A stretch of DNA of 64,000 nucleotides from Candidatus Omnitrophota bacterium (GCA_023247415.1 JAHFGN010000001.1:10062-74061), one strand, 5' to 3'. Positions 1 to 32,167 are shown, numbered from the stretch's first letter. Translations and numbers: made by a program. Notes: generated from the sequence alone by a model not told the origin.

Positions 1-2
1 TG

Positions 3-3000
3 GACGTCGTAAACGGCGTTCCTCTTTCTCCAATCGGCGCCGGCCGCGCAACCTCAAGCGAAACGCGGGATTCTACGACGGGAACGGAAAAGAAAGCCCC
101 AATCGCAACACATAAACGCGTTGAAAGGATCCGAGCGGCATTAAAGGAGTTCGGCGGCAGCGTGGGGTCCGCACAAGCAAAGGGCATTTTTAAAAAACAT
201 GGTCTATCGTGGGATGTGGAGAGAAAATTTGTTAAAGCGTTGCTCGCCGCGCAAGATAGATACAGGCCTCTTGGCGCGAGGCTCAAGCTGTCCGCACTGC
301 CATCAGAGCTCGCGGCAGGAGAGTGGCTTAAATCACTAAGCGGGCTTGAAACTAAGGATGCCCAATTGCGTAAAAAGGCTTCCAAAAAGTCGATTACGCC
401 ATCCAAGGAAGCGAAGGCGAAAGAGAAAGCGCTCGAAATCCTCGAGGCCCTAACCGTAAACAATGTCAACTCGATTATAGGCGAAATGCAAGAAGTGGAG
501 AAAATCGCAAATATAGGTCTGTCAGGGCTCCTATCCGAATATTTAGGTAAAGAGCTCAAACATATTTCCGAAAATGGACCATACGACCCGTATATAGATG
601 TCATGATACAGATTAAGGCCGGGTCATTCAATCCTTTTAACGAAAGAGATGTTGCGGCCCTGCTTGACCTTGTGAGGGGATTAGAATATTCAAAAGAATG
701 GCTCGATTCAACAACGAAAAAGGTAGCAGAGCTTAAGAAAGAGGTAAAAGATATTCGGAAAGCCCTGAAGGCGCCTGCGCTGTCAGTTGATGGCTATGTC
801 AGGCAAGAGGTAGAAAGGGACGATCTCAAAAAGAGAATTAACTTTTTGGAGACTTATCTGGAAACGCTTAAAAAAGGACCCGCATCCAAAGATGCCAGCC
901 GCGACAGCGCAAGCGGGGCGCGGGATTCTACGGCGGGGGGATTGGCCGAACAGCAGGAAGGAAATCGCGCGGACCTGGCGGCGCTGATAGGGGATTATTT
1001 TGAAGAAACGGGCACTACAGAATCAAGGTATATGGATGCGCTTATAGAAATAGCTTCTTCTATGTCTGGAAAACATCTAAATAATATCATTCGGTGCTTA
1101 GCAGACGAGAAACCGCGTGACTTAAATCAGCTTAGGCTGGAGAAAGTCTTGAGCAGCCCAACGCCTTTAGATAGCGCCATATTTAATACAGCTATCACTA
1201 TAATAAAACAAGCGATGTCTACGGCTGAGGATATCTCTGCTGAAATACGCAGACTCAGCAACGGAGATCAAGTTAGAATAAATAAATCGCAGGAATTAAG
1301 CAATAGAATTTTGAAATTGGCCTATGGAAGCAATCCGCAAAAGTTTATGTTATCAGAAGAATTTAAGGGTCTGGTAGACAAGCGCATTTCCGAGAAGAAG
1401 CAAGCGCACGGCAAAGAACGACTCGTGCATGAGCGCGGCACCACGAGCGGCACGGCGGATATATTGGATAAGGCCAAGGCGAATTTGAACGGCCCAAATA
1501 GCGGAATAGTGAATATATATCCGAATAGGGCTAAATTGGGCAAGGCCGAGGCGGAGGATGTCGCCTCTGAGCTGAGGCGGCTCATTAAGGAAAAAGGCAA
1601 AGCCGTTCTGGTCTTCGCCGCAGCGCCGTCGCAGAATGAATTTTTAGACGCGCTGGCGCAAGAGAAAGATATAGGCTGGTCCAAGGTGGTCGCGTTTCAT
1701 CTGGATGAGTATTTCGAACTTCAGCGCGGCCATAAGAATACATTCGAGGTATATCTCAATGACCGCCTCTTCAATAGACTGGCTGCAAAGCCCAAGGTCT
1801 ACTTTATAAAAGATTTGAGCGGCACGCCTGAAGAGATCTGCGCTAAATACGGTGAGCTCATTATGGAAGAAGGCGGGATAGATATAGCCTGCATCGGCGA
1901 AGGCGAGAACGCGCATATAGCGTTCAACGATCCAGGGGCGCTATTTTTTGATGACAAGTTGGTCAGGGTAGTTGCGATGGATGAGATGTGCAGACGCCAG
2001 CAATTCAGGGATTATGCGAACGACCCTGATCCTGAGAAACGTTATAAGACGCTGGAAGATGTGCCGCGCCGGGCCATCACATTGACCATTCCAGCAATCC
2101 TCTCTGCCGGCAGGATATTCTGCTCTGTGCCGGCAATCTCGAAGCAATATGCTGTTAGAAGCTCGATATTGGGGCCGGTTACTCACGCATATCCAGCCAG
2201 CCTATTGAAGAGGCATGAATATGTAAGGTACTATTTTGACAGGGACTCAAGCCTCCTGCTTGGCATGGATTTTGAGCAGGACAAGACCCTCAGCTTTACA
2301 ATCCCGCAGAAGACCAGGGTAGACCATAAGGTTATCGAGCGGTCTGTAAGGTTTGAAAATCTGCCCAGCGCGAAGAGAGTAGCAGTGATAGATTATGATG
2401 GTGAAGCCGCAGGCGGATGTTATGGTCTGATCAGGCGATTGCAATCGATGGGTAACGATGTTGTAATCTATGCGACAAATGGCCTCCCGGATCATATAAG
2501 AACTCTGCAGAACTCTCTTATATACTACAACCCGGAAGTCATCCTCTTTCCCGATAGAACGGACAAGCGGCCTGGGGTTAAGGCGATCGCCACTTTGGTA
2601 GATACTATAATGATAAGTAAGATTTGGGGAGGGAAGAAGGATCTGACACTTATCGAATATGAGACGAGCGGCGCGGCGCTTGGTAATAATCTGTTCCATA
2701 TACTCACAGAAGCCGCTTATACGATGAAGTCGTTTGCGATAAATGCCTATCAATCCCAGCTTAGAAGGCTGAGGTTTGACCTTGTTGCTGACGCGGCCAT
2801 GGCAGTCAATATGGCTAAATTGAGATCGCTGGGCGCAATTCCATATGACGCGGAGGGAGACTATGCGGAGGTCTTTGACCTCGTATATTTTAATAATGGG
2901 CAGCGCTCAAGACCCGACGGCGTAAAGGGATTGAGCAAATTAAATATGAAAAATGGCCATGCCGTCTCTTTATTGCCGCACTATGACGATGAGCTCTCCA

Positions 3001-6000
3001 TCGCCGGGTTAGTGAACGAATTTCTTAATAATGGATTTGACATCACGCCTCTGTATATGACGACAGGCCACCGCGCCGCTATTGTGGATAAGGATGGAAG
3101 GCCGGTTAGCGATAAAGAAGAAAGGGTTAGGATTAGAGAAGCTGAGGCGCTCGAGGCTAACAAGAGGCTCGGGATTAAGACATTGCCGCAATTCCTGCGA
3201 TTTGGTTTTTATGACAGACCACCAGATGCGGACGGAAATCGCGTGGTTAGCGATGAAGAGAAAAAAAGGGTATATGGATTGATCAAATCTGAGTACGCGG
3301 AATTCAAAAAAAGCGGCAAGAAAGAGTCCTTTGTAATATTCGCGCCTCAGGCCAACGATGCCCATCCTGACCATAGGGCGACGCACGATATCGGGACTCA
3401 GGCAGCGGAGAGGCTGTCGAAGGAAGAAAGCGCCAAGATAGCAGTAATATACTATAAAGGAGCGTGGGCTGAAAATTTCAATGCCTACAGCTATATGGAT
3501 GACAAGATTGTTGATGGGAAATTGGGCCAGCCGGTCATGCCAAGCAAAATGCGCGCAAGCCTATTTTCAGGGCTTTTAAACGCGCTCGTTGCGCCGGAAC
3601 TCGTTTCGCTAAAAGGCCACGGTTCAATGCCGCTTAAGCCGGAGCAGTTAGGCGGAGGTTCCGCGGAGAGGTTTAAAGTCACGTATGTAGAACCCAAAGG
3701 AAAAGTTGTTACGCCGAAGGAGGCGTTTATCTTCGTCGACCCCAGCCCGCGCGCGAACGCGAGCGGCACGGCGCCGAAAGGAAAAGAAGAATATTTCTCG
3801 GCAAGGTGTCTGAAGATGGGAGTCAACCCAGCGATTGCAAGCGAGCTCGTCGGATTTATTGAGCCGGAAGGACGTGTCATACTCTCTGATATGATCGCGG
3901 ATCTGAGAAGAAGACGTATAATAGCAGCTGACAGAGCGAATAACAATGACGGTGAGATTATAAAGACGGTGACAGGAAGCAGGACGTTCGGATTTGAAAC
4001 GGTTAAGGCCATCGTGTTCCTTTTGAATGAGAAAGGCCTTTTGACGCCGGTAATCCAAAAAGGCGATAAGAGAAAGTTGGAACTTATATCCACCCACTTT
4101 ATAATCAGCGACAGGCTGCGCAGGGACATGAAACCGCAAGAGAGATTTGACAGCGCGTATCGTATATTGCAGGTGCACAACCCTAAGCTGGCAGTAAAAT
4201 TGAATAGTCTGCGCGGTTTAATTGGCAAGTCCAGAGATTCGAAGATATTCGCGTCTTTGGACAGTTTAGGTCTAACACAGGATGAAAAGATGGTCCTGCT
4301 CCCGGCATTCAGCAATTTTTCCGGCGCGCGTAGCAGCGCGAACGGTGCGCTGATTGGAAGGGCGAGCCCCTATTTTATAGGTATGAGCATGGGCGGGACC
4401 AAGCTGACCGTGATGTTATATAGAATGATAGACGGAAAACCCGAGGCGCTTTACAGCAATAGCTTTATATGGAAGGACTTGCTGAAGCTGGATGACGAAA
4501 GGGATATAGCCGGTCCTAATAAAGATTTGGCAGACACCATCGTCTCAAGGATCGCTGAAATAGTGCGGGATATTCTCAAGACATATGAGCTGGGGATAAA
4601 TAATCTGAACAATATCGGCTGTACCTCGCCTGGGCCGCTCGATGCCGAAACAGGGGTTATCGGGACCGAGTGCAGGACATTCAATATGCCCTTCGATAAG
4701 TATCCGTTTGTGGCGCAGCTGAAAGAGGCGCTTGGGACAGAATTTGTCGATATAAGACATGATTCCCACGCGAGCCTCGAAGCGGAGACAGCATTTGGCG
4801 CGCTCTCTCGAGTCGCTAACGGCTATTACGTAATCCAGGGGACAGGCCTCGGCGGATCGCCGTCTGTGAATGAGAGATATTATACGGAGGTGCCGGAGCT
4901 GACAGAGCCCGGGCATCATATTGTAGGCGCGCCCGATCCATTAAGTCGAAATAAGAGGGGGTACCATTTCAGATTTATACAAAAATATGGCAAAGGCCAT
5001 CCTTATGAGGTGGTTGCAGAGCCGGATCCAAATAAGGAGTATCAGATTAAAGAAAAGGAGGCAGAAGAATTAATAGCATCCGGTAAATACCGAAAAGAAG
5101 ATTTCATCTGGACAATAGAGGGCGAAAAAGACTTCGAAGACATAGTTGCCGGCGTGGGCCTTATTCCCATGCTGAAAGATAAGAATAGGCTCGCTTCAAT
5201 GTTTGGCGGAAAAACAGCCGATTATTCAGGCATAAACGAGCCAAAAGACCTCTCGGAATTGGCTATAAATGGTTCTGAAAATGAAAAATATATAGCTCAG
5301 ATGATGATTATGTATATTGCAGAGCAGGTAGGCAGGGGTTTAGCGTCTCTCATAGCCGCTTCAAATAGGAAGGAATGGCAGCTGCGGAAGATTGTCATGG
5401 GCTCTACCATAGGTGAGAGATTGGGAATCGATTCCAAGGGCAAGATACTCTTGACGCGAGAAGGGAAGGACTTCTACTATTACCGGATCAATGAATGCGC
5501 GAAATTTGAACTTACCAGCGAATTTGGCTGGTCTGACGAGTCCGCGAATTTAATATCTATAGTGCGCTCGAACCTTACGCAGGCCGAGAGGGAGACAGCC
5601 GGATTCAACCGGCAGGAAGCGGAGACAGGCCGGGCAACTCCTAAAGAGCGAACTTCAACCTCAGGATTGAAACCGTCATATCAGGATGTCAAATCTATCG
5701 TTAAAAAAGGCAATAAGGAAGAAATAGCGGCTGTGTTGAAGCGCATCTTGACAGGTGGGGCATCCAGTGTAGACATTGAAGGCCTCTTTAAAGAGTTGAC
5801 GCCAGGCGAGGCCGGATTCCTCTTAAATATAATCATGACTACAACGGAGCTCACACCTCTAATCCCAGCGCGTATCCAACGGTCAGAGCGGATTCGAAAA
5901 GGGTTGGCAGCAATCAACGAAGTAGTTAAGAGTCCGGGGATGATAGCGCCTGCGCAGATAGCGGATTTAGTTAATCTATATCGAGATACCGGCGGCAAGA

Positions 6001-9000
6001 TACGCGTTTCAGGGGTTGAGGCCCAGCACCTCGTCCACTTCTATTCCACCTGTCCGACAGATGTGAAGAACGGACTGCTTAAAGACGCCCTCTTTAGAGA
6101 GTTATTCGCTATGGCCAACCTCGAATGGTTCTTCCTGAAATCCCCAAATCTGGACAGGCGCCATTACGAGGCTACAATAACTTTGGATGAGAATAATCCA
6201 TTAAAACCCGTAAAGGTAGAATACTGGCAGACGCAGGCGCAGGGGACGATGCAGGCGCCAGCGGCAAGATCAAAGGCTAATATCAACTATGGAAAAGGTG
6301 CTCATAACTACAAGGAGAATGGCGGAAAGACACCCTCACCTCAAGATATCAGCGAAAACGATCAGGTTAGCCGCCTTATAGCGTTCATAAATAACGCCGT
6401 GAGTACAGGAGAGGATCTGGGTCAGATATTGGATCACCCTGTCGCGACAGTGCGCGCTATGGGCCGAGGAGCATTTGGATACCACGAGGCTAAGACAGAG
6501 GCAGACAGTGCTGAAAAAATGGCAGATCAAGAATTATATGGATATCTTGCGAAGGTAGACAATCCCGCTGTGATAGGATCAGTACTCAAAAAAATAAGGA
6601 TGCCCATGATATCCGCGCAGAGAGACGTGTCTGAAGGCGGCTCCACATCGCCTGCGATGCGGGTTGCATACAGTAATGCTTATCTCGCCTTAGTCAAAAG
6701 GCGTGAAGAACTTCTTGGCAGACCTGGCTTGGAGTTAAATATAGCATGGAGCTTATATCTTTATAAGTTTAGCGTAAATAGTTACTGTAACAGATATACA
6801 GACGAGCAAAAGCAAGAGAGGATGAAAGAGGAAAAGGGACGCGCCGCAGTCAAGGATGATACGGTGGCAGTGTTCGGGGAGAATTATACACAAGAAGAGG
6901 CGCATAAACAAATAGATGCTGCAGAAGCGCTTGGATACCATGCTCTGATAATCTTTGATCCCAGGAATGGCCGCATAGTAGACTTCGGCCCAACTCAAAA
7001 AGAGATTATGCAGGTAAGTGGGTTGAAGATGCAGGCGCAAAGCGCTTTTTCTTCAACCGAGGAGCGAGACGAGATGATTGCCCTCATAGCCTTCTTAATA
7101 GACCCGACGAAACGCCTTGGTCTCGATAGCTACTCTTTGAAACCAGAATCGCCTGGCGCCATAGCTAATATAAGAGAATCCCTCAAAGCTCTTCTATCAA
7201 ATGACATAGATGCAGCGATTACAAGTTTAGGCAAGGGGATCGAGGCGTTGGAAGCGTGGATAAAGAATACTGCGGTTAACAAGCGGGGCAAAGAGGGAGA
7301 CGAGTTTATGCTTCCAATCGCAAAGCGTAGAAAACTGCAGCTTGAGAACTTCCTGCTGCTTAAGTCGACGCTTTCAACACACCCTGTGATCGGCATATTA
7401 AGCCGTGTCGCAGGTCTAAAAACCGAAGAGATTTTGAAATTTTGTATAAAGAGCGAAATCACATTAGATGATTTAAAACCAAACGGTATCCGGCTTGCCG
7501 CATTCTTAAAAGTGATCGCAGAGAACATGCACCATTTCTCCGGACTTAAAACGAGAGTTCGTTATTCACTCTGTCTTCCGCCAAACGGCAAAACCATATC
7601 CTTCTTAGAACTTCTATTCGGCGAATCGGATGAACGAAGCAGCTTAAAAGGGTTACGCGTTGAACGCGGAGATTCAGCTTGTAAGTATTTTATGGGTAGC
7701 GAGCCATTCCCAGGCAACGAGGCCAAATCCTTCTTGGGCGAAGAGCTGTATGAGGTGGGGGGGCTGGGCAACGCTATGGAAAGATTAAAGGCTATGCCGG
7801 ATGTCAATGACCCGTGGCTTTATATGAGAGCACCAGAAGAATGGAAGTCAGGCGACGTCGGCGCGCAGACTCATGCGGCAGGAATCAAAGGCCTCGATCG
7901 GCATGCAGCGCCGAATTTCGAAGAGGCGTTCGAGGCTCAGATTGAGGCGTTGAGCGGCTTATTGTCAGAATTTGATAGATCGGATTTTTTGCAAAGCCAT
8001 GATTGGGCAGTGCCAGCGGTAATCGCCATCCAAAGCGCATTATTGACCGCTGGATATAATACGAAAGAGCAGATCGATAGATTGGACGAATTACTACAGG
8101 ATGTATATAAGTTAAAGGGCCTACGATACAACTTATTATACAAATATATAATTATCGAGGCCCATGAAGCACTGTTAGGGGCAGGGCACAATCGCCAGGC
8201 ACAAATAGAGAAGTTTGAAAGCGTGCTGAAGGAAGTTACAGCTGACTACTCTGATACCATGATAGTGACCAGAATTCTAAGCGCGTTGATAAGGGGCCGT
8301 CACAATGTAGATGAGAACCACCGCAGGTTGATTGAGGTTGTGTCAGAAAAAGATAAGCCAGGCCCCAAATTTTTAGAGCTCATCTATGAAAGAATAACTA
8401 TGCGCGGCGCGCTGTTAGACGCTGGTTACAAACCAGAAGAGCAGATAAAGATTCTCCTCGAAGAGTTGTCGAAGGTCGACCAGCCAGCCTGGACGGATTT
8501 TAAAAGTGGAGAGATAATAAAAGCGAGAAATGCATTGTTGATGGCTGGTTATAAACCGGAAGAGCAGATCGCCAGATTGAGTGAGATATTGTCGCTGGTA
8601 AACGAGCCAAATCGGCGAAATGATTATATATTCGATATAATCGCCGTCCGCGGCGCTTTATTGCTCTATGCGGCCAAGGCGAAAGGCCGGCTTACCGAGC
8701 GCTTTAGTGCCAGCGGAGAGAACGGAGCGATTGCAGAAATTGCCGCGGTCGTGAAAGAGGCAGGTCTGGAAATTCCTACGCATCCGGGCGAGCGATATAC
8801 CCTGCTTCTGCCGTTTGAGTTTTTCGCCAACGGAGAGTTTGAGGCGCAAAAAGCTAATTATGGAGACAGGTTCAATATCAACAGGGCAAACGGCGCTGAT
8901 AACATCTTGGCGAAGGCAAGAGGCCTTGAGAATAGAACTATAGCCCTTGTGCCGAATGATATGCCCGAGGAAGGGCTCAAGAGGCTGGCAGATGCTGGTC

Positions 9001-9332
9001 TAAGATTTATAAGAACGGATATCGGGAAATTACAGGAGGCGAGAGCGGCCGGGGATAAAGATAGAAAGGCCTTCCAATTGAATACATATGTGATGATGCT
9101 CCTCGCAAGACATATCAAGGACGCCAATAGCGATTCGTCGATATACAAGGTATTGAGCTTTTATCTGAAGTCGCACTTCGAATTGGACAATATAGCGGTT
9201 GCCGATTATATTGAGGCCATAGTAAGCGGCGATATCGCGAGGTTGATCAAGGGTTACCTCTCATATAAACCTGCCGAACAATACCGCGTACCGGAATACG
9301 ACAAGGTCGCGGCAACATTGGTCGCGGCGTAA
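3..9332 (+). CDS. Giant multidomain protein, 5'-partial (frame open to window edge; at least 3100 aa). Domains: NagB/6-phosphogluconolactonase-fold, LmbE/PIG-L-type deacetylase, ROK-family sugar kinase, tandem 'LLxAGYKPEEQI' repeats, family C-terminal module.
   Basis: ORF 162..9332 has no in-frame stop back to nt 3. Motifs seen: 'VVAFHLDEYF...GEGENAHIAFNDPG' (NagB fold), 'LLPHYDDELS...DAHPDHRATHD' (LmbE/PIG-L), 'GMSMGGTKL...GTGLGGS' (ROK). The C-terminus 'TIALVPNDMPEE...' aligns with the C-module of the other giant paralogs. A hairpin terminator follows. Confidence 0.8.
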   Translation, partial: DVVNGVPLSPIGAGRATSSETRDSTTGTEKKAPIATHKRVERIRAALKEFGGSVGSAQAKGIFKKHGLSWDVERKFVKALLAAQDRYRPLGARLKLSALPSELAAGEWLKSLSGLETKDAQLRKKASKKSITPSKEAKAKEKALEILEALTVNNVNSIIGEMQEVEKIANIGLSGLLSEYLGKELKHISENGPYDPYIDVMIQIKAGSFNPFNERDVAALLDLVRGLEYSKEWLDSTTKKVAELKKEVKDIRKALKAPALSVDGYVRQEVERDDLKKRINFLETYLETLKKGPASKDASRDSASGARDSTAGGLAEQQEGNRADLAALIGDYFEETGTTESRYMDALIEIASSMSGKHLNNIIRCLADEKPRDLNQLRLEKVLSSPTPLDSAIFNTAITIIKQAMSTAEDISAEIRRLSNGDQVRINKSQELSNRILKLAYGSNPQKFMLSEEFKGLVDKRISEKKQAHGKERLVHERGTTSGTADILDKAKANLNGPNSGIVNIYPNRAKLGKAEAEDVASELRRLIKEKGKAVLVFAAAPSQNEFLDALAQEKDIGWSKVVAFHLDEYFELQRGHKNTFEVYLNDRLFNRLAAKPKVYFIKDLSGTPEEICAKYGELIMEEGGIDIACIGEGENAHIAFNDPGALFFDDKLVRVVAMDEMCRRQQFRDYANDPDPEKRYKTLEDVPRRAITLTIPAILSAGRIFCSVPAISKQYAVRSSILGPVTHAYPASLLKRHEYVRYYFDRDSSLLLGMDFEQDKTLSFTIPQKTRVDHKVIERSVRFENLPSAKRVAVIDYDGEAAGGCYGLIRRLQSMGNDVVIYATNGLPDHIRTLQNSLIYYNPEVILFPDRTDKRPGVKAIATLVDTIMISKIWGGKKDLTLIEYETSGAALGNNLFHILTEAAYTMKSFAINAYQSQLRRLRFDLVADAAMAVNMAKLRSLGAIPYDAEGDYAEVFDLVYFNNGQRSRPDGVKGLSKLNMKNGHAVSLLPHYDDELSIAGLVNEFLNNGFDITPLYMTTGHRAAIVDKDGRPVSDKEERVRIREAEALEANKRLGIKTLPQFLRFGFYDRPPDADGNRVVSDEEKKRVYGLIKSEYAEFKKSGKKESFVIFAPQANDAHPDHRATHDIGTQAAERLSKEESAKIAVIYYKGAWAENFNAYSYMDDKIVDGKLGQPVMPSKMRASLFSGLLNALVAPELVSLKGHGSMPLKPEQLGGGSAERFKVTYVEPKGKVVTPKEAFIFVDPSPRANASGTAPKGKEEYFSARCLKMGVNPAIASELVGFIEPEGRVILSDMIADLRRRRIIAADRANNNDGEIIKTVTGSRTFGFETVKAIVFLLNEKGLLTPVIQKGDKRKLELISTHFIISDRLRRDMKPQERFDSAYRILQVHNPKLAVKLNSLRGLIGKSRDSKIFASLDSLGLTQDEKMVLLPAFSNFSGARSSANGALIGRASPYFIGMSMGGTKLTVMLYRMIDGKPEALYSNSFIWKDLLKLDDERDIAGPNKDLADTIVSRIAEIVRDILKTYELGINNLNNIGCTSPGPLDAETGVIGTECRTFNMPFDKYPFVAQLKEALGTEFVDIRHDSHASLEAETAFGALSRVANGYYVIQGTGLGGSPSVNERYYTEVPELTEPGHHIVGAPDPLSRNKRGYHFRFIQKYGKGHPYEVVAEPDPNKEYQIKEKEAEELIASGKYRKEDFIWTIEGEKDFEDIVAGVGLIPMLKDKNRLASMFGGKTADYSGINEPKDLSELAINGSENEKYIAQMMIMYIAEQVGRGLASLIAASNRKEWQLRKIVMGSTIGERLGIDSKGKILLTREGKDFYYYRINECAKFELTSEFGWSDESANLISIVRSNLTQAERETAGFNRQEAETGRATPKERTSTSGLKPSYQDVKSIVKKGNKEEIAAVLKRILTGGASSVDIEGLFKELTPGEAGFLLNIIMTTTELTPLIPARIQRSERIRKGLAAINEVVKSPGMIAPAQIADLVNLYRDTGGKIRVSGVEAQHLVHFYSTCPTDVKNGLLKDALFRELFAMANLEWFFLKSPNLDRRHYEATITLDENNPLKPVKVEYWQTQAQGTMQAPAARSKANINYGKGAHNYKENGGKTPSPQDISENDQVSRLIAFINNAVSTGEDLGQILDHPVATVRAMGRGAFGYHEAKTEADSAEKMADQELYGYLAKVDNPAVIGSVLKKIRMPMISAQRDVSEGGSTSPAMRVAYSNAYLALVKRREELLGRPGLELNIAWSLYLYKFSVNSYCNRYTDEQKQERMKEEKGRAAVKDDTVAVFGENYTQEEAHKQIDAAEALGYHALIIFDPRNGRIVDFGPTQKEIMQVSGLKMQAQSAFSSTEERDEMIALIAFLIDPTKRLGLDSYSLKPESPGAIANIRESLKALLSNDIDAAITSLGKGIEALEAWIKNTAVNKRGKEGDEFMLPIAKRRKLQLENFLLLKSTLSTHPVIGILSRVAGLKTEEILKFCIKSEITLDDLKPNGIRLAAFLKVIAENMHHFSGLKTRVRYSLCLPPNGKTISFLELLFGESDERSSLKGLRVERGDSACKYFMGSEPFPGNEAKSFLGEELYEVGGLGNAMERLKAMPDVNDPWLYMRAPEEWKSGDVGAQTHAAGIKGLDRHAAPNFEEAFEAQIEALSGLLSEFDRSDFLQSHDWAVPAVIAIQSALLTAGYNTKEQIDRLDELLQDVYKLKGLRYNLLYKYIIIEAHEALLGAGHNRQAQIEKFESVLKEVTADYSDTMIVTRILSALIRGRHNVDENHRRLIEVVSEKDKPGPKFLELIYERITMRGALLDAGYKPEEQIKILLEELSKVDQPAWTDFKSGEIIKARNALLMAGYKPEEQIARLSEILSLVNEPNRRNDYIFDIIAVRGALLLYAAKAKGRLTERFSASGENGAIAEIAAVVKEAGLEIPTHPGERYTLLLPFEFFANGEFEAQKANYGDRFNINRANGADNILAKARGLENRTIALVPNDMPEEGLKRLADAGLRFIRTDIGKLQEARAAGDKDRKAFQLNTYVMMLLARHIKDANSDSSIYKVLSFYLKSHFELDNIAVADYIEAIVSGDIARLIKGYLSYKPAEQYRVPEYDKVAATLVAA

Positions 9333-12237: not shown

Positions 12238-12242
12238 GATTG

Positions 12243-18947: not shown

Positions 18948-18953
18948 TTGAAG

Positions 18954-21900
18954 ATGCATATGAAAAAAATTATAATTATTTTAGCTATAGCAGCATTTTT
19001 ATCTTCCAATATAGCGTTGGCTGAGCCGGCCAATACCCTCGCCCCGTCACTGCGATTCCAGAGTTCATTTCCACATGAGCGGCCACAGACGCAAGGCGAC
19101 TCTGTACTCTCCGACGTAAAATTATTCACCGTCCTATTTGCAATAGGTAAACAACTCCTGATCGATAACAGGCCTATCCGCGCCATTCCGCGCGCAATAA
19201 GAAATAAATTCGTATTCGATCCGTCATTTCTCGCGGGCATAGAACCTGATGGTATACGGCGGGATGGCAGTACGATAATCGTACCTTATTCGAAGGGCAC
19301 GAAGGATTATGAAATAAGGATAAGGCCGAAAGAGCTGTTGAAGGGATCGAGCGCCGGATGGAAGATCTCCGACAGATTCGGGGTGCAGGCTGTGGAAATC
19401 AAGAAAGCAGCCGCTGATTCCAGTTTCAGGATGGCGGCCGGGGGCGGCGGCCCATCTGCGCACCAGGATGCTCGAACAGCGATGCTGGCTGATGGCGGCT
19501 GGTCGCCGCTTCTTGAGGAGCTTCGATCCAGCCTGCAGCAGGCAGCGCAAAATCAGGACCAATCCAGGCTTTTCATCTTCCTGGACGCCTGCAATGAGGC
19601 CCAGGCGAGCGACCGAAAAAATCCGATCGAAAACCGATATCCGATACTGCATGCGGTAACCCTGCTTTCGAAAGAGGAGAAGCGTCAACTGATTGATATA
19701 TTACTTCAGCAGAACAATCAGGAGAAGCGTTACCAGTCAGCCGTAACAGATTCTATCCTTTTGATGCTGGCCAAAAACATCCCTCAGGAATGGCTGAACA
19801 GATGGGCCGGTAACATGGAAGGCCGCACCATCTGGGATGTATCCAGCGAGGCCTGGAATGCCGGCGGCGGTCTGGGCCGTGTCATACAGTATCGCGTCCT
19901 CGCCATGCTGAACCTCCTAAAAGGGCACAATACGCGCATTCGCACCGTCGAGCCGCACTATCAGGAAAATAGAGACGGCACAAAACTGTCCTACGAATCC
20001 CTCCCCCTGCCAATCGAGAATAAACAGAAGATAGACGAATTTGAAGTAAAGTTTGGGATGAAGAAGGCAAAGGCGATCTGTTATCGCGGCATAGTCCATT
20101 ATAAAGCGGAGGATAACCAGACATATGAAGTCGAGGCGTATCGGATTGAAGACGAAGGCGGGTACTATACAAAGTGCATGTATAAATACGGCTCGGGAGG
20201 CCATAATGACCCTATAGTCACATGGGAAGACTTCTCCGCGTTCTTCTCCACGGCATCCTTAGAACTGATGAAGCGCGTCGAAGAAAAAGAGATGAGAGAA
20301 AGACAGGGCAGAAAGCCCCCTGTCATCCACTTCAACGATTCCCAGTTAGCGCCCGCAGTGGAATATTACCTGCAGGATTATTACAGGGAACCCTCCTTGA
20401 GAGACGCCCTGGTTGTATTTCAAACGCACACTATACCAAACCGGCAGGACTATATTTGGGAAAGGGGAGTGCAGGCTGTGAAAGATATGGGCATACACGG
20501 CGAGGCCTATGCTAAAATTTGGCTGCACTTCGGGCATCACAGGCCAAAACAGGGAGGCGGTTGGGAGGCCGTTGTAGATTGGGCTTCAGCAGGCATACGC
20601 GACGCCGGTTTAGCGTTAGGCGTAAGCAGACAGCAGTTGAGTGTTATCGGCCCGTTTGATGAATGGAAAGTGGAAGAACAGGGGAAGCCGTATGTTGATC
20701 TTATTGCGGCGACAAACGGAGATCTGCGCGAATTGACAGCGATAGAGTTCAGGCGGATTATGCGGCAGGTATGCGGCAATGATGTCGATGTGGAGGAGCC
20801 GACCGTAGAACAGGTTTTAAAGACCAAACAAGCGGCAAAAAAGGCATTGGGGAGCGAGCTGAAGAGGTTGAAAAATAACACGATGTTAACATTAAACCCT
20901 GACCAGTATGTTGTATCTTATTCAGGAAGGCTTGTCCCTGAGAAGGTCAGCAGAACGCGGGCATTTACAAATGAAAATATCGAAGCGCTCGTAAAAATGG
21001 GTGTTCAAGTAATCATATACGGCAATGTTCAAAATAGCGATCCGAGCCGCGCGATAGAGCGAGAGCTGTTAGGCCTGGAAAGAGATCTTAAGGAAAAGGG
21101 TTATCTCGGGAAATTTATCTTCATCCCAAGTTTCACTCCGGGGGATCAGAGGCTGCTTCTGGCCGCAACAGATATTCAGGCGCAGGTTTCGGATCCAAAT
21201 ACCGAAGCCGCTGGCGCCACAGAATCTGATATTGCCGCCTGCGCCGGGTTAGAGCTCGCGCCGCACTGGCGTGAGGGGATATTGCAGGCCCAGGGCATTC
21301 CAATAAATCTGGATGAGACAGGCGAAGGCAGCATACTCATACCTCGGGAAGACAAGCCGGAATCATACCTGGAAATTTTGACCGGGGTTTTAAGCAAGAA
21401 ACCGCCGGAGCTCGCGGAATACCAGGCGACATCGGTTCGCTTAAGCCGCGTCTTAGAGGCTGTGCTCACATCGGCCGAGAATCTCAGGCAATACGACGCA
21501 GCCTTATCCAGGAGGGATATGAGCAGAAAAACGGCCAGTGGAGTGAGCGGGGTGATGAAAGAAATCCACAGGATCAACCTCGATATAGGCGTCTATCATG
21601 AAGCAGGCAGGACCTTCTGGCACGTGATACCGATAGAGCTTGTCCCGTATCCTATAAGGAATAAGTTTATAGATATTGTTGCCAGGATGAACCGCGATTA
21701 TCCGGACGCGCCTGAAAAGATAAAGATAGTGACTGAACACCAGGACCTGTTTGACATAGCAGGGAGGCTCTCGGCAGATAATGACGTAGACGTTGCCCTA
21801 TCCCGGCGCGGCGATATAGACAAACTGCCGGATGGAGTAAAGGCGCTCGTCTTTGAAGGCGAATTGGGAAACTTCAGACAGCTGGAGGGGGTGCTCGCCT

Positions 21901-22124
21901 GTTTGAGAGCGTTGTCCATAAAGAATAGCGCGGAAAGATCAGATAAGTTGTCAAGGCTTTATAAACTTTTGACCGGCGAAGATCCGAAAAAAATACCGGA
22001 TATATCCGACCCGAAAACATTTGCCCGAAACTTTATATTCATCCTGCCGCCCATTGCAGTCGAGAATTACGAATACCTGCGAAAGTTAAACTCCAACCTT
22101 CTCCACCTCATCGAATCCGCATAG
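18954..22124 (+). CDS. Giant-family protein (about 1056 aa): signal peptide, TLAP N-domain, GT-B glucan phosphorylase/glycogen-synthase-like domain, family C-module
   Basis: 'MKKIIIILAIAAFLSSNIALAEPANTLAPS' (leader). 'VSSEAWNAGGGLGRV' and 'YSGRLVPEKV' are GT5/GT35-like. The C-terminus 'FIFILPPIAVENYEYLRK' matches the family C-module. A sigma70 promoter and shared leader lie upstream. Confidence 0.75.
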   Translation: MHMKKIIIILAIAAFLSSNIALAEPANTLAPSLRFQSSFPHERPQTQGDSVLSDVKLFTVLFAIGKQLLIDNRPIRAIPRAIRNKFVFDPSFLAGIEPDGIRRDGSTIIVPYSKGTKDYEIRIRPKELLKGSSAGWKISDRFGVQAVEIKKAAADSSFRMAAGGGGPSAHQDARTAMLADGGWSPLLEELRSSLQQAAQNQDQSRLFIFLDACNEAQASDRKNPIENRYPILHAVTLLSKEEKRQLIDILLQQNNQEKRYQSAVTDSILLMLAKNIPQEWLNRWAGNMEGRTIWDVSSEAWNAGGGLGRVIQYRVLAMLNLLKGHNTRIRTVEPHYQENRDGTKLSYESLPLPIENKQKIDEFEVKFGMKKAKAICYRGIVHYKAEDNQTYEVEAYRIEDEGGYYTKCMYKYGSGGHNDPIVTWEDFSAFFSTASLELMKRVEEKEMRERQGRKPPVIHFNDSQLAPAVEYYLQDYYREPSLRDALVVFQTHTIPNRQDYIWERGVQAVKDMGIHGEAYAKIWLHFGHHRPKQGGGWEAVVDWASAGIRDAGLALGVSRQQLSVIGPFDEWKVEEQGKPYVDLIAATNGDLRELTAIEFRRIMRQVCGNDVDVEEPTVEQVLKTKQAAKKALGSELKRLKNNTMLTLNPDQYVVSYSGRLVPEKVSRTRAFTNENIEALVKMGVQVIIYGNVQNSDPSRAIERELLGLERDLKEKGYLGKFIFIPSFTPGDQRLLLAATDIQAQVSDPNTEAAGATESDIAACAGLELAPHWREGILQAQGIPINLDETGEGSILIPREDKPESYLEILTGVLSKKPPELAEYQATSVRLSRVLEAVLTSAENLRQYDAALSRRDMSRKTASGVSGVMKEIHRINLDIGVYHEAGRTFWHVIPIELVPYPIRNKFIDIVARMNRDYPDAPEKIKIVTEHQDLFDIAGRLSADNDVDVALSRRGDIDKLPDGVKALVFEGELGNFRQLEGVLACLRALSIKNSAERSDKLSRLYKLLTGEDPKKIPDISDPKTFARNFIFILPPIAVENYEYLRKLNSNLLHLIESA

Positions 22125-28300: not shown

Positions 28301-28316
28301 GTTAGAATCGTTGTAA
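22359..28316 (+). CDS. Giant-family protein (1985 aa): signal peptide, TLAP N-domain, phosphofructokinase-like domain, DeoC/LacD/DhnA-type class I aldolase-like domain, HEAT-like repeats, family C-module
   Basis: 'ATGGGDCAGLNPAIAAF', 'IIGGEDNMG' and 'EIMGRKAGWLALYAG' are PFK GGD/MGR motifs. 'VAIVALDQG' is LacD/DhnA-like. The C-terminus is 'IIRILPKTFPIRHADAVEAYRATRRALESL'. An AAGGAG RBS sits 8 nt upstream. Confidence 0.8.
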   Translation: MSKRAIAKIVSLLLIPSFFASDIAFAANIRDALAPYSGLELANGKDEENPVLAARQNKVRALVKAKMAESLARAMYGRLKKHNDISAEVIRQTVAADVKNWSVMRQAASGSSITVKRFRGADKEIDKGNTFVIATGGGDCAGLNPAIAAFIREMQKEGKNVLGVKEGYKGVASPEFLKKYAVLLENEDAGHIQGLASTVLASSRENPYEIDAAGELKDPNRIENCRKNLDGFAGFAIIGGEDNMGVAGQFSTDEKLPKQVAAIPKSIDNDVDTQMLGFHTAWTEARDIFYAPRLEGAMAQAEKEFDEIIERFVSTAVSADAHKKYNVTLAQGDQAKKAGAWLANFIHSANPNADPIFQRLPAPLKIHLLHLRDSIVVLTPDEPRSLKDIVATSYNIYKKKRTANVLLVDGFVFGKDEDGYTKEAIAKDHLLKALYEGQEPPYAPDFIEHKAHLVRRGMIYHLAKLPHANVKGGQDVRFSMVGRMDVSRSKYSVTEIMGRKAGWLALYAGSKYPKDFEELPIELQKAVEEKRAHVLILTPEKPATLKEIVDEAGRIWKDTGRCDILVAEGLSFSKDDEYLKKLLENNKVLNAYYDEQVVHPAYDSHGHPKLEGIGWFVRWAISHFLHEELAYIPEWKMSYELRGLAPDEYDTRLGEAFGRKAAELLLSGSSGKAVTLPDGLEPIYENIQVRPIADAVRQKNITTQVERGLLTEEELRRQGVFQNLRRAASGSANVERFKREREIIKNILKAQNISLPAGISAGEVLSMLEFADAKGHVAIVALDQGTLIQWVDPKADKKDPSQESIDKGTVVRLTIMYYLANGMRAKNRRVGFLLDKPALQAISNEGSEGARAAKLIARGTLPPDFMDVIKDMPLVAQIEEARGERGVAKGVYYTAKKRDGNFSVEEAVKLGSRLIKSNVFFYCGGELTEEEKEFNKKQWEFIGEVAKECREFGIGYVSELLYLVPPEMLTRHNTDEKSYRATPEFMNAHKAATIIAAERMLKIPGLTLAKSAHPYPGEAGWKSVSPAERKEALKQVANVAGNRWLILSADEPWETFRLKVEEAAIYGQMAGILVGRSPIKNITQKVTIDGKNIDMLKPDDAVKDILQTEGVEKLLELLGYIDNAPANVWRGLGFGDNFHPQAIKDQLDYARYSGSGFTYVYTPEDLIGDPDVVKGPEQGYSWAGYGISAFFGLAKRLIAEIWYHSVQKDGLSKVPGATHDKLREDIEGEKSVFAKIMGKDETQPQVVHIGFNEKIGPGGEQKQLFVDLCVRERRLVKRLKRELEKYIHTEAEFVRYQKAYAAWVSRQSAIGVKWTNPGLPELPEFMAGFDMPIFEAIQNVRAEIVRYFNEIELKPGQFIRSPVGFIHSIVGSYQGHPLSGKKAKNEAWYIFSIGKDAEGHDRLLYFEPQQTSNTTYSPLDFPTPIVWKNGGAEMRKDIGAGIDKDIDELLQDGDSTPANDEDAVKVIAERAFYYRPANPDEFVVNSFENVTSGGLYAYPKNARAESLIEGKNAYPNWPEDLFTLHRIILVGDSKKKEYALITVRPPPEAYRFDEFFVIKGKVKARIGGQWYPQVLAPGASILVTDPRSQIEIRAEGEAEVLRLYHTKQGPSPRLAKAGEAVGTSKAAEWVKLIKDPNSSEGIRRKAADDLGLIESVPEEAVTSLIEMLDSEDKGVLKYVVMALGNIRVKRVVQGLVDMLSQEDFDMEVRIELIIALGKIGERMSDDSQIRAALENILKNLSQIDLNHAARYTLTNMDAAKKMAELLKDRTSANGTDLQQETAEEDVETKVAGWNKIDADSLLGTLAAIRVRNGQLRKGPILIAYDTGLEEFPTGHVAQAADAKINEYLDGGLVSVRGTGEKLLEAIKEVVAAKGLNPKDVVVIAGDNTAEAARKFGTVIHVKNTDGQFLPIIEFYNLALKILYGLGEDEILESLKRIGGAESFTTEDVRKLFSAGIIRILPKTFPIRHADAVEAYRATRRALESL

Positions 28317-32035: not shown

Positions 32036-32090
32036 TTTGTGCGGCAGGCACCCTGCCGCAGAGAGCAGGGTGCCTGCACACGGTTAAGAT
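32036..32090. repeat. Degenerate REP-like palindrome (possible REP pair/terminator)
   Basis: 'ttttgtgcggcaggcaccctgccgcagagagcagggtgcctgcacac' shares 'ttttgtgc.gcaggg.gcc' with the REP and folds as a long hairpin. Confidence 0.45.
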
Positions 32091-32113
32091 TGCAAAAATT
32101 TTGTTTTCGACCC

Positions 32114-32167
32114 TTGACAAGTGAAAGAATATCAGTATACTTATGTGGCTTTAAAATTAAAAAAATG
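32114..32167 (+). promoter_or_regulatory. Sigma70-type promoter (TTGACA-16-TATACT) plus conserved leader 'tATGTGGcTTtaaaaTTAAAAAAA' upstream of the 32216 giant gene
   Basis: -35 at 32114-32119 and -10 at 32136-32141. An AAGGAG RBS lies at about 32203-32208. Confidence 0.55.

Follow-up and report, generated by a model that had tools for sequence, protein, structure and literature searches.

A NagB-like/LmbE block and a ROK/hexokinase-like module in a modular protein of an Omnitrophota bacterium: a plausible amino-sugar function

Results

Two unrelated modules in one long protein

We analysed a stretch of 64,000 nucleotides (the window) from an uncultured Candidatus Omnitrophota bacterium, of which positions 1480-5000 had been read from sequence alone as a fused triad for the utilization of N-acetylglucosamine (GlcNAc). 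Our profile and homologue comparisons indicate that this interval belongs to a modular 'beads-on-a-string' protein, termed G3784 (P0001), and that it holds two unrelated modules: a NagB-like/LmbE block and a ROK/hexokinase-like module. The two recur independently of each other, so the triad does not stand as one unit. The conversion of GlcNAc to fructose-6-phosphate by G3784 is nevertheless plausible. The features of this gene are as follows.

1..9332, + strand: 3' 9.3 kb of the G3784 gene, coding for the 3,784-aa protein P0001
1434..1451, + strand: linker R-G-T-T-S-G, about 20 aa before the NagB-like module (motif census)
1524..2213, + strand: NagB-like (Glucosamine_iso) domain, 'AAAPSQ / FNDP' subfamily (PF01182)
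2373..2954, + strand: degenerate LmbE-like domain (profile comparison, homologue conservation)
2970..3404, + strand: intact LmbE/PIG-L zinc deacetylase domain (PF02585), with a conserved extension to about nt 3764
4329..4346, + strand: linker R-S-S-A-N-G, ending 6 aa before the ROK-like module
4365..5615, + strand: ROK/hexokinase-like module, 415 aa (bounds from alignment to 13 homologues)
5649..5666, + strand: linker R-T-S-T-S-G, starting 12 aa past the end of the ROK-like module
5667..8699, + strand: region of about 1,000 aa without detectable family (no Pfam, no PDB sequence match)
8037-8600, + strand: four helical repeats '[AG]LLxAG[YH]xxxEQI', 40-45 aa (regular expression)
8700..9329, + strand: family-specific C-terminal cap domain, about 210 aa, with the linker motif R-F-S-A-S-G at its start

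Within G3784, the window begins near residue 676, and the ORF listed from nt 162 (residue 729; hereafter ORF1) represents the C-terminal 3,056 aa of the protein. No in-frame stop is found upstream of ORF1 within the window, so the ORF extends past the window edge. Outside the window, the upstream part carries the signal peptide, an N-terminal cap, and a 2-Hacid_dh domain that resembles phosphoglycerate dehydrogenase (PF00389/PF02826, with further matches to TIGR01327 and PGDH structures). The layout evident from these comparisons comprises a cleavable Sec-type signal peptide, the N-terminal cap, enzyme modules predicted to fold independently, with short R-x-S-T-x-G linkers, rich in Ser, Thr, and Gly, and helical spacers between them, and a C-terminal alpha/beta cap.

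When ORF1 (window 162-9329) was scanned against Pfam-A with hmmscan, exactly three families exceeded their gathering scores: PF01182 (Glucosamine_iso; aa 455-684, 44.0 bits vs. 27, E 3e-11), PF02585 (PIG-L; aa 937-1081, 47.1 bits vs. 28.2, E 4e-12), and PF00480 (ROK; aa 1431-1588, 33.5 bits vs. 22.9). These are the families named in the sequence-only reading, and the peptides it quoted are present in ORF1. Its description of ORF1 as a three-domain protein needs revision, however, since the ORF is incomplete, the ROK unit really measures 415 aa, and the interval holds four domains, the fourth being a degenerate LmbE-like domain between the NagB-like and PIG-L domains. About 330 aa between the PIG-L domain and the ROK-like module are without family assignment.

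The unusual length of G3784 was the only reason to consider that an assembly chimera or a gene-calling fusion of separate genes had produced it, and no point in favor of such an artefact was found. No stop codon interrupts the reading frame over 11.3 kb (48% GC), composition and skew are uniform, the identical 3,784-aa protein was recovered from three contigs (NCBI, ENA, and Logan), and multi-module homologues are present in other samples. The chance of an artefact is therefore negligible.

The NagB-LmbE block

The NagB-like domain is matched by Bacillus subtilis NagB (2bkv) at E 2e-28. In this alignment, as in 128 subfamily homologues, the equivalents of catalytic Asp72 (HLDEY, nt 1698-1712), His143 (GENAHIAFNDPG, nt 1902-1937), and Lys208 (AISKQ, nt 2133-2147) are kept, so the catalytic Asp/His pair that the earlier reading had singled out for checking is in place together with the lysine. 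The sequence AAAPSQ stands where NagB has its TGGTP phosphate loop, and Asp replaces Glu148. By its AAAPSQ loop and FNDP motif, the domain belongs to a distinct subfamily, the stand-alone members of which carry the annotation GlcN-6-P deaminase. The NCBIfam equivalog model for NagB scores far short of its cutoff (102 vs. 237).

The degenerate LmbE-like domain has 'VAVIDYDGE' for HPDDE and 'FPDRTDKRP' for the HPDH box, while 'AYQSQ' is kept. It is conserved in P0002, P0012, P0004, P0015, P0020, and P0050. Pfam gave no match in this region; hhalign against the intact LmbE profile gave a probability of 94.4% (E 9e-8), and BshB1 (6p2t) matched weakly (E 0.009). The second copy has a complete HxDD...H metal/base set (H940, D942, D943, H1068, D1070, and H1071, window numbering; PHYDD at nt 2976-2990, AHPDH at nt 3360-3374), and these six residues are invariant in seven homologues. 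The zinc-binding residues predicted for this domain are thus intact, with a gap of 128 aa between ligands 2 and 3, which falls inside the published range of 97-148 aa (PMC4101496). The best PDB matches of its profile are diacetylchitobiose deacetylases (8bgn, 3wl4, and 3we7; E 3e-12). The deacetylase is not NagA; an amidohydrolase domain is absent from the Pfam-A scan of ORF1.

Homologue comparisons indicate that the three domains form a pre-existing fused block, which is already catalogued as NF002557/PRK02122, 'glucosamine-6-phosphate deaminase-like protein'. This NagB-LmbE fusion family (profile of about 650 aa) is the best NCBIfam model for P0001 and aligns with its NagB-like and LmbE regions in the same order, a NagB-like region followed by one or more LmbE-like regions. 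P0001 differs from the family in its score (127 bits vs. a cutoff of 384), in having the block inside a 3,784-aa secreted-type protein, and in lacking the metal ligands of the first LmbE-like copy. The block occurs by itself in P0002 (855 aa; 46% identity over 750 aa) and P0012 (743 aa, leaderless), and as a unit also in P0004 and P0015; P0012 and P0002 have the same three-part arrangement with AAAPSQ, IDY, and PHxDD...HPDH. In the literature searched, we found no biochemistry of the NF002557/PRK02122 family and no measured activity for the AAAPSQ subfamily or the ROK-like module. Among 1.84 billion representative proteins, only P0001 combines the LmbE block with the ROK-like module. Because this pairing is unique, evolution lends no support to the fusion as one unit of a pathway.

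The ROK/hexokinase-like module

The ROK match covers only the N-terminal half of the profile (positions ~18-160 of 294) and rises to 39.3 bits (E 7e-10) if the segment is scanned alone. The module contains SPYFIGMSMGGTK, with Ser at the position of the ASKHA phosphate-1 Asp, followed by 'RHDSHA' (catalytic-base Asp), 'GTGLGGS', 'EPGHHIVG', an insert of about 100 aa, and the C-terminal end '...RETAGFNR'. The module has no Cys zinc motif. Glucokinase 3vov aligns with the module, and the Foldseek matches of a low-confidence AF2 model are all ASKHA sugar kinases; the NCBIfam model for ROK-glucokinase is far from its cutoff (19 vs. 260).

At least 13 homologous modules are found in long proteins (43-60% identity), and the module is a separate unit specific to this lineage. 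Its partners elsewhere, in long proteins of other Omnitrophota, are, by their domain assignments, enzymes making glucose or galactose rather than GlcNAc enzymes: amylomaltase GH77 and a NagB-like domain without LmbE (P0100), galactokinase (GHMP kinase) and mutarotase of the Leloir pathway (P0011 and P0013), UDP-glucose epimerase (P0008), and class I aldolase (P0134). In the nearest relative, MAG CAYHAE01, it is a stand-alone protein without signal peptide (P0006/P0159) that adjoins PEPCK. Because of these partners and this neighborhood, the module is likelier to be a general hexokinase than a GlcNAc kinase.

The same associations can be taken further, to a general entry of hexoses, in which the ROK-like module would be the divergent glucokinase of this lineage and the NagB-like fold would work as an isomerase of hexose-6-phosphate or as an enzyme of the lactonase type. 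Here the part played by the LmbE domains would be accessory or unrelated, and upper-glycolysis steps that are absent from most Omnitrophota in KO-based surveys would be supplied. The altered phosphate loop and Glu148 of the NagB-like domain agree with this, as does a second NagB-like domain beside a class V FBPase in the neighboring protein G2021. We know of no NagB-fold enzyme with demonstrated phosphoglucose isomerase (PGI) activity, which counts against it. Moreover, the NagB-like domain of G3784 keeps the deaminase Asp/His pair, its stand-alone relatives are annotated as deaminases, and in many lineages it lies in a block tightly fused to an intact GlcNAc-type deacetylase. The scarcity of hexokinase (25/176) and PGI (67/176) in complete Omnitrophota genomes, as reported in a preprint (10.64898/2026.06.07.730766), again favors hexose entry. 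On balance, we regard it as unlikely, but as an alternative to be taken seriously.

Sister proteins and the question of export

G3784 is accompanied by six further long proteins, and these seven neighbors jointly carry most of glycolysis.

18948..22124, + strand: G1058, signal peptide, starch/glycogen-synthase GT5 domain, C-terminal cap
22359..28316, + strand: G1985, signal peptide, PFK with large insert, HEAT repeats, C-terminal cap
28329..32033, + strand: G1234, signal peptide, His_Phos_1 (dPGM-type) domain, C-terminal cap
32039..38104, + strand: G2021, second Glucosamine_iso-like domain, class V FBPase (FBPase_3), C-terminal cap; true start likely at nt 32216, where the leader begins
38160..40931, + strand: G923, signal peptide and C-terminal cap, no Pfam domain
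41038..47352, + strand: G2104, signal peptide, GAPDH-PGK-TIM fused in that order, C-terminal cap

The PFK domain that had been noticed in the paralog at 22359 is real and has a PPi-PFK-like signature (GGEDN / PKSIDND); the paralogy lies in the common leader and C-terminal domain. Leader, N-terminal cap (family-specific, with an LAxxS..DD motif), and C-terminal cap are common to the long window proteins and to proteins of other Omnitrophota. Canonical catalytic motifs are found in GAPDH (ASCTT, Cys), PGK (STGGGASLEFL), TIM (K/H/E), and PFK (TIDND-type). The embedded domains are unusually divergent, since they reach only 0.1-0.6 Pfam bits per profile position compared to 1.0-1.4 for housekeeping enzymes of the same window, and their function may have changed.

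Each of the seven long proteins carries a textbook SPase-I signal but lacks any further hydrophobic segment. Export is thus predicted by sequence, while the chemistry needs ATP or PPi and NAD; if the proteins are exported, the kinase, GAPDH, and PGK would be without cofactors. A signal peptide is hard to reconcile with ATP-dependent sugar-phosphate chemistry. In another reading, the proteins would be exported scaffolds for carbohydrate binding or adhesion, in which enzyme-derived domains mainly recognise sugars or sugar phosphates or serve as surface antigens. Such a secreted protein would contact prey or host cells, and only cofactor-independent hydrolytic modules (LmbE) would be catalytic. 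Besides the signal peptides, the strong divergence of every embedded domain, the Ser for the Mg-binding Asp of the ROK-like module, and the already degenerate LmbE copy are in line with a scaffold, as are published views that see long Omnitrophota proteins as surface-located and active on prey walls. But catalytic residues are kept in the GAPDH, PGK, TIM, PFK, LmbE, and NagB-like domains, and the domain set corresponds to a single pathway and not to sugar binders sampled at random. Furthermore, a close relative has a leaderless, evidently cytoplasmic protein with the same SMGGTK ROK-like module, so the Ser in this motif is no sign of decay. We therefore consider a scaffold function improbable.

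A tentative amino-sugar pathway

The reading that we prefer, although its probability as a whole falls somewhat short of even, is an amino-sugar pathway that feeds the glycolytic modules of the sister proteins. The intact LmbE domain, whose nearest relatives of known structure act on GlcNAc and chitobiose, would N-deacetylate a GlcNAc-type sugar. The NagB-like domain beside it would deaminate or isomerise the resulting amino-sugar phosphate to fructose-6-phosphate, and the ROK-like module could serve as a general kinase for glucose or glucosamine rather than a dedicated GlcNAc kinase. The products would then enter the PFK, FBPase-V, TIM-GAPDH-PGK, and PGM-like modules of the six sister proteins, 10-38 kb downstream. 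The originally proposed set of activities from GlcNAc to fructose-6-phosphate is borne out by the families and by the LmbE and NagB residues, but not by the Ser-for-Asp exchange and the missing Cys zinc site of the ROK-like module, the lack of NagA, the altered NagB loop and Glu148, and the signal peptide. The low NagB and ROK-glucokinase scores, the divergence of the domains, and the unique pairing are further points against the amino-sugar pathway.

Linker motifs between the modules

The linkers share the motif class R-x-[AST][AST][SNT]-G, which occurs 26 times in the seven long proteins compared to 1.1 +/- 1.0 in shuffled sequences (24-fold) and is absent from the 23 other window proteins. 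These motifs could be processing sites, at which a polyprotein precursor is cut into enzymes after translation or export. This would be compatible with every function proposed above for G3784. The motifs lie about 6-20 aa from module edges, the edges near them correspond to the termini of stand-alone homologues, and a gene for an Rce1-like CPBP protease is located between G3784 and the other six genes. Cleavage of giant Omnitrophota proteins after translation has also been proposed by West-Roberts et al. (10.1101/2023.11.21.568195). On the other hand, homologous long proteins from other Omnitrophota show no excess of the motif (3 observed vs. 2.4 expected), Ser/Thr/Gly-rich stretches are ordinary flexible linkers, and no protease is tied to the motif, leaving the sites putative. 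Processing of this kind is a doubtful prospect.

Relation to known systems

The archaeal chitin pathway of Thermococcus/Pyrococcus runs from diacetylchitobiose deacetylase (Dac, LmbE family) via a glucosamine kinase to a GlcN-6-P deaminase. Its logic, with an LmbE protein instead of NagA followed by phosphorylation and deamination, would fit the three G3784 domains, and the intact LmbE domain has HxDD and HPDH residues identical to those of Dac. The archaeal deaminase is of the SIS type (GlmD) and the kinase is ADP-dependent, whereas the G3784 counterparts are NagB-fold and ROK-like and are fused in a signal-peptide protein. No glucosaminidase was found. With the bacterial NagK (ROK)/NagA/NagB pathway, G3784 shares the ROK-family fold and a NagB-fold with catalytic Asp and His; it differs from this pathway by the absent NagA amidohydrolase domain and the short NagB equivalog score, and from NagK by the missing DxGxT Asp and Cys4-type zinc motif and by fusion partners that are not GlcNAc enzymes. 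Thermotoga maritima has a PGK-TIM fusion protein. G2104 likewise carries PGK and TIM on one polypeptide in operon order, but adds GAPDH, and about 900 of the 2,104 aa of this signal-peptide protein are without assignment.

Long Omnitrophota proteins with sugar-metabolism domains, including ROK and GT5, are described in two preprints as 'Archaeovorins' (10.1101/2023.11.21.568195) and a 'multi-enzyme metabolic cluster' (10.64898/2026.06.07.730766). Strings of sugar enzymes in this phylum are thus of a kind already noted there. The long window proteins share with both classes the phylum, the tiling of GT5, ROK, TIM, FBPase, and PGM-type domains with HEAT repeats, and the conflict between a predicted extracytoplasmic place and cytoplasmic chemistry. 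The giants described there have at least 10,000-30,000 aa, and most of them contain numerous TM helices, whereas the seven long window proteins have 923-3,784 aa and a signal peptide only, divide one pathway among themselves, and have common caps and a lineage-specific linker motif. No mention of the NagB-LmbE block, the cap domains, or the linker motif was found in the accessible parts of either preprint. An Omnitrophota origin is supported by TopA of the window, which is 79-80% identical to that of two MAGs and 55-65% identical to that of named Omnitrophota, and by the protein P0003, annotated as Ca. Omnitrophota.

Domain content of G3784

The first long ORF of the window (162..9332), which like all genes of the window lies on the + strand, has no in-frame stop upstream of it within the window and encodes the C-terminal 3,056 residues of G3784 (P0001), a protein of 3,784 amino acids; window residue n is P0001 residue n + 728. 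The protein is identical on the NCBI, ENA (194,841-bp) and Logan contigs, and an assembly or gene-calling artefact as its origin was therefore rejected. Outside the window, the protein starts with a signal peptide and further contains a 2-Hacid_dh domain resembling D-3-phosphoglycerate dehydrogenase. Altogether, five Pfam families were found in P0001. The sequence-only reading had placed a NagB-fold, an LmbE-type deacetylase and a ROK kinase domain in succession at nt 1480-5000. This observation was confirmed, since the Pfam scan gave exactly the three named families there, all above their gathering scores:

Pfam matches within ORF 162..9332
aa 455-684, + strand: Glucosamine_iso (PF01182), 44.0 bits, gathering score 27; profile positions 2-218 of 225
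aa 937-1081, + strand: PIG-L (PF02585), 47.1 bits, gathering score 28.2; profile positions 3-128 of 129
aa 1431-1588, + strand: ROK (PF00480), 33.5 bits, gathering score 22.9; 39.3 bits when the segment was scanned alone

The ROK match was confined to profile positions 18-160 of 294, corresponding to the N-terminal half of the module. Pfam at E ≤ 10 gave no credible match on any unassigned stretch of P0001, and a PDB sequence search with its 1,028-aa C-terminal half gave no match. Four helical repeats, each 40-45 aa long ('[AG]LLxAG[YH]xxxEQIxxL'), were noticed at nt 8037-8600; they are confined to G3784 and matched no Pfam repeat family.

The NagB-like domain and the LmbE domains

The NagB-like domain aligned with B. 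subtilis NagB (2bkv) at E 2e-28. The residues tested were those that we take to be the catalytic Asp72 and His143 and the phosphate-binding Lys208 of NagB (E. coli numbering). The motifs HLDEY, GENAHIAFN and AISKQ align with the NagB motifs of 2bkv: the catalytic Asp and His, for which the sequence-only reading had proposed a check, are present, and the Lys is kept as well. Within the subfamily, represented by 128 of the best 150 matches, these positions are conserved in 124, 125 and 119 of 128 members, respectively. Two other features are non-canonical. The phosphate loop TGGTP of NagB is replaced by FAAAPSQ in P0001 and by (F)AA(A/G)PSQ in the subfamily (SQ in 123/128), and the position of Glu148 is occupied by Asp (FNDP instead of FNEP) in P0001 and in 106 of the 128 members. 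P0001 scored 102.3 bits with the NagB equivalog TIGR00502, below the cutoff of 236.9. The top NCBIfam model was NF002557/PRK02122 ('glucosamine-6-phosphate deaminase-like protein'), a 653-position profile that matched in two stretches; P0001 reached 127 bits, against a whole-protein cutoff of 384. We take this model to describe a NagB-LmbE fusion family, which the model output does not itself state. The order of the domains in G3784, NagB-like followed by LmbE-like, is the same as in this model and was supported by block-wise alignment with the foreign homologues P0002 and P0012.

We searched 1.84 billion representative proteins exhaustively by HMMER with a 1,200-aa segment (window aa 440-1639). 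The block of NagB-like and LmbE domains occurs as a unit in P0002, an 855-aa protein that has a signal peptide of its own and shares 46% identity over 750 aa, and in the leaderless P0012 (743 aa). In two further homologues, P0004 and P0015, the LmbE part is N-terminal to the NagB-like part. Alignment of the homologues also demonstrated that the interval between the NagB-like and PIG-L Pfam domains is a conserved domain. This middle domain (nt 2373-2954) matched no Pfam family, and direct BLASTP against the PIG-L domain gave nothing, the kinship being visible with profiles only: hhalign against the LmbE profile resulted in a probability of 94.4% (E 9e-8), and BshB1 (6p2t) was matched at E 0.009. 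These profile comparisons support a second LmbE-like domain, whose metal ligands are lost in G3784 (IDYDGE, DRTDKRP).

The LmbE domain proper retains its metal and base residues, the second check proposed by the sequence-only reading. P-H-Y-D-D and A-H-P-D-H are invariant in 7/7 homologues and align to the same residues of the deacetylase Dac (8bgn). Ligands 2 and 3 are 128 aa apart, inside the range of 97-148 residues published for the LmbE-like superfamily with its H-x-D-D plus H metal/base motif (PMC4101496). The solved structures closest to the LmbE profile are those of archaeal diacetylchitobiose deacetylases (8bgn, 3wl4 and 3we7, E 3e-12); TT1542, BshB and MshB come next. In contrast to the canonical NagK/NagA/NagB pathway, the NagA amidohydrolase family was not found in P0001 or its sister proteins by Pfam and NCBIfam. 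The literature searched contained neither a characterised NagB-LmbE fusion nor any biochemistry of the AAAPSQ NagB-like subfamily.

The ROK-like module

ROK sugar kinases have the Asp of the ASKHA phosphate-1 motif DxGxT and a Cys-rich zinc motif. Alignment with 13 homologues (43-60% identity) delimited the ROK-like module of G3784 as a unit of 415 aa, 'SPYFIGMSMGGTK ... RETAGF(D/N)R'. The catalytic-base Asp is present (RHDSHA vs ENDANA of glucokinase 3vov), as are GTGLGGS and E-P-G-H. As in the NagB-like domain, two features are non-canonical: the Mg-binding Asp of DxGxT is a Ser (GMSMGGTK) in 14/14 modules, and in place of the Cys zinc motif there is an insert of ∼100 aa that is rich in His (GHH...HPYE). 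The module contains no CxC motif and does not match a PROSITE-type ROK signature; the score with the ROK glucokinase model TIGR00744 (18.8 bits) is below its cutoff of 260. An AF2 model based on a four-sequence alignment was poor (mean pLDDT only 56.6). The top 50 Foldseek matches of this poor model were almost all ROK, hexokinase or glucokinase chains (E 3e-7 to 3e-5, TM 0.3-0.47).

To judge from the homologues, the ROK-like module is a mobile unit. The domain contents of foreign homologues, which are long Omnitrophota proteins stringing together different pathway sets, are as follows:

Domain content of foreign long proteins
P0100: NagB-like, GH77 amylomaltase, ROK-like
P0011, P0013: mutarotase, galactokinase-type GHMP kinase, ROK-like
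P0008: ROK-like, UDP-glucose-epimerase-type (sugar-nucleotide epimerase) domain
P0134: class I FBP aldolase, ROK-like
P0015: LmbE, NagB-like, ribulose-P epimerase, transketolase, PfkB

The module also exists as a stand-alone, leaderless gene, starting MQAQNRSAPYFIGMSMGGTK (L082:9965-11224, contig CAYHAE010000002.1 of MAG GCA_964354545.1). This gene is located directly downstream of a GTP-type PEPCK in CAYHAE01, the nearest relative by TopA: the TopA of the window shares 79-80% identity with two MAGs (CAZPYQ01, CAYHAE01), 55-65% with many Candidatus Omnitrophota MAGs and at most 52% with Firmicutes. Another ROK-like homologue, MDD5496149.1, is annotated as Ca. Omnitrophota. Among the 1.84 billion representative proteins, no protein besides P0001 combined the LmbE block with the ROK-like module.

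The sequence-only reading had interpreted the three domains as a triad converting an N-acetyl-hexosamine to fructose-6-phosphate. This interpretation is partly supported. The domains and most of their catalytic residues withstand the refutation test set by that reading; two NagB and two ROK features, described above, are non-canonical, the three domains do not form a conserved unit, and the claim had left out the problem of the compartment. The associations of the ROK-like module favour a hexose kinase of general type over one specific for GlcNAc. Of 176 complete Omnitrophota genomes, KO searches recovered hexokinase from only 25, according to a 2026 preprint (10.64898/2026.06.07.730766). Our candidate for this enzyme, which pathway surveys miss in most genomes of the phylum, is the divergent ROK-like module.

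Six sister proteins with common leaders and caps

Six further long ORFs are located at 18948-47352, with short gaps between them:

Sister proteins of G3784, named by length in aa
G1058, ORF start 18948, + strand: GT5 starch-synthase
G1985, 22359-28316, + strand: PFK; HEAT repeats at aa 1629-1716
G1234, ORF start 28329, + strand: His_Phos_1 (dPGM-type)
G2021, 32039-38104, + strand: second Glucosamine_iso; class V FBPase (FBPase_3)
G923, ORF start 38160, + strand: no recognisable domain
G2104, 41038-47352, + strand: GAPDH-PGK-TIM, fused in operon order

The Glucosamine_iso-like domain of G2021 matches the N-terminal half of the profile only. FBPase_3, the family of its class V FBPase, comprises bifunctional FBP aldolase/phosphatases from archaea and deep-branching bacteria. 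The GTG listed as the start of this gene is probably wrong, since its leader starts only at nt 32216, with an ATG. By eye, the catalytic motifs of G2104 are intact (GAPDH: ASCTT, WYENEWGFS; PGK: ASHNGR, STGGGASLEFL; TIM: Lys, His, Glu); the N-terminal NAD domain of its GAPDH was not detected by Pfam. The PFK of G1985 (aa 130-520) has the motifs GGEDN, TGGGD, PKSIDND and MGRKAGWLAL and an insert of ∼190 aa. We take these motifs to resemble those of PPi-dependent PFKs.

All seven proteins start with a textbook signal peptide of the Sec type, as identified by eye and by regular expression: two or three Lys/Arg residues, then a hydrophobic core (LVSLILIPTFL, for instance) and, around residue 23-33, a predicted SPase-I cleavage motif, (A/T/G)(F/L)A (for example MTTKLLNK-LVSLILIPTFLSS-DLAFA/Q). 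These leaders (ORFs at 18948, 22359, 28329, 32216, 38160 and 41038; L001:1405-1560 for G3784, outside the window) are near-identical and follow the pattern K-[IL]-[IV]-S-L-x-L-I-P-[ST]-F-L-x-S-[DN]-[LI]-[AT]-F-A. None of the seven proteins has a second hydrophobic segment. Lipoprotein and Tat signals were rejected, since neither a lipobox Cys nor an RR is present. The seven proteins also have in common an N-terminal cap domain of ∼150 aa, with an 'LA(P/A)xS..(DD)' motif 5-15 residues after the leader. The same leader and motif are found in the foreign long proteins P0008, P0011, P0013, P0059, P0100 and P0134, which suggests an N-terminal cap or sorting signal specific to this family. A C-terminal domain of ∼210 aa is likewise common to all seven proteins and occurs in 9 foreign proteins (local hmmsearch/phmmer).

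The domains embedded between these caps score 0.1-0.6 Pfam bits per profile position and are far more divergent than the products of the housekeeping genes in the window (IlvD, IlvC, LeuA, TatD, AroC, MtnA, Alr and TopA; 10864-18737 and 48173-63096), which score 1.0-1.4. This strong divergence suggests accessory, fast-evolving copies and not the sole glycolytic enzymes of the cell.

A linker motif at module boundaries

The motif R-x-[AST][AST][SNT]-G occurs 26 times in the seven proteins, compared to 1.1 ± 1.0 in shuffles, and is absent from 23 other proteins of the window. It appears in variants such as GLRRAASG, ARDSTAGG and RSSANG (patterns GLRxAASG and ARDSTxG) and is placed at module boundaries, for example at nt 1434-1451, 4329-4346, 5649-5666 and 8700-8717. 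In G3784, one copy lies ∼20 aa before the NagB-like module, one ends 6 aa before and another starts 12 aa after the ROK-like module, and one opens the C-terminal cap. Foreign Omnitrophota homologues showed no enrichment (3 observed vs 2.4 expected); a family-wide feature was therefore rejected, and the motif is specific to the present genome. It may serve as a flexible linker or be a site of modification or processing. Near the long-protein genes there is a single protease-like gene, which lies between G3784 and the other six and encodes an Rce1-like (CPBP/CAAX) intramembrane protease (12361-13443); any link between this protease and the motif is pure speculation.

Proposed function and compartment

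From the modular architecture, the identities of the modules and the retained catalytic residues, all of which are directly evident, we infer the following functions. The intact LmbE domain would remove the acetyl group from a GlcNAc-type sugar, and the fused NagB-like domain would convert the amino-sugar phosphate to fructose-6-phosphate. The ROK-like module would phosphorylate hexoses (glucose or glucosamine), and the products could then feed into the sister proteins with their modules for PFK, FBPase-V, TIM-GAPDH-PGK and PGM. The fusion of deacetylase and deaminase argues for consecutive action, from GlcNAc-6-P via GlcN-6-P to fructose-6-phosphate. The affinity of the LmbE domain to Dac enzymes argues instead for unphosphorylated GlcNAc or chitobiose as the substrate.

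The predicted export of these proteins is in conflict with their chemistry, since kinase, GAPDH and PGK reactions need ATP or PPi and NAD. The presence of a KDO transferase gene indicates a diderm cell. Omnitrophota are widespread, ultra-small and partly predatory bacteria. One reading is that the seven proteins are exported and together make up an almost complete enzyme set from sugar to 3-phosphoglycerate (hexose and amino-sugar entry, PPi-type PFK, FBP aldolase/phosphatase, TIM, GAPDH, PGK, PGM and GT5), with the divergent ROK-like and NagB-like modules as dedicated entry enzymes. The site of action would be a periplasm or coat of enlarged volume, or else a prey or host cell to which the set is delivered; in either case, this ultra-small predator or epibiont would run or hijack glycolysis outside its cytoplasm. 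We regard this as a rather improbable scenario.

Relation to known long proteins of Omnitrophota

The same conflict between export and chemistry was met, and left open, for the 'Archaeovorins' in the preprint by West-Roberts et al. (10.1101/2023.11.21.568195). This preprint and a later catalogue (10.64898/2026.06.07.730766) both note domains of glycolysis and sugar metabolism in proteins 10,000-150,000 aa long, whose topology is ambiguous due to many predicted membrane helices, and ROK, GT5, TIM, FBPase and PGM-type domains are known from long Omnitrophota proteins. Among proteins of at least 10 kaa, the catalogue distinguishes a 'multi-enzyme metabolic cluster' class and assigns 9% to a signal-peptide-only class (10.64898/2026.06.07.730766). 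G3784 resembles these multi-enzyme proteins and Archaeovorins in its Omnitrophota origin and in several metabolic Pfam domains tiled on one polypeptide. In contrast to the Archaeovorins and catalogued proteins (at least 10,000 aa or tens of thousands, with multiple transmembrane helices), it has only 3,784 aa and a lone N-terminal hydrophobic segment.

Several features of the locus appear to be new compared to the accessible portions of both preprints: the proteins are small and carry a signal peptide only, they share cap domains, and one pathway is divided among their seven adjacent genes. The same applies to the linker motif confined to this genome, to the degenerate second LmbE domain and to the delimitation of the ROK-like module of 415 aa, which has a stand-alone counterpart. 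The pairing of NagB and LmbE is already catalogued in NCBIfam, and conservation does not extend to the link with the kinase; the claim of a GlcNAc pathway is therefore of modest value. The locus represents a small and clean version of the long-protein phenomenon, with seven proteins of 0.9-3.8 kaa, one signal peptide each, common N- and C-terminal caps, recognisable module boundaries and largely intact catalytic motifs. This format makes enzyme activity and membrane side directly testable with single modules of 250-450 aa.

Other genes in and around the window

Rfam and tRNA scans of the window gave no matches. In one ORF (10864-12237, + strand), a radical-SAM domain is joined to a complete TatD-type hydrolase (294 bits), an unusual pairing. 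Toxin-antitoxin-like pairs flank the gene for G3784 on both sides: downstream (9469-10861, + strand), an AbiEii nucleotidyltransferase toxin is paired with a protein of 206 aa without known family, and upstream (L001:541-1110), a MazE/PrlF-like antitoxin is paired with a protein of 93 aa.
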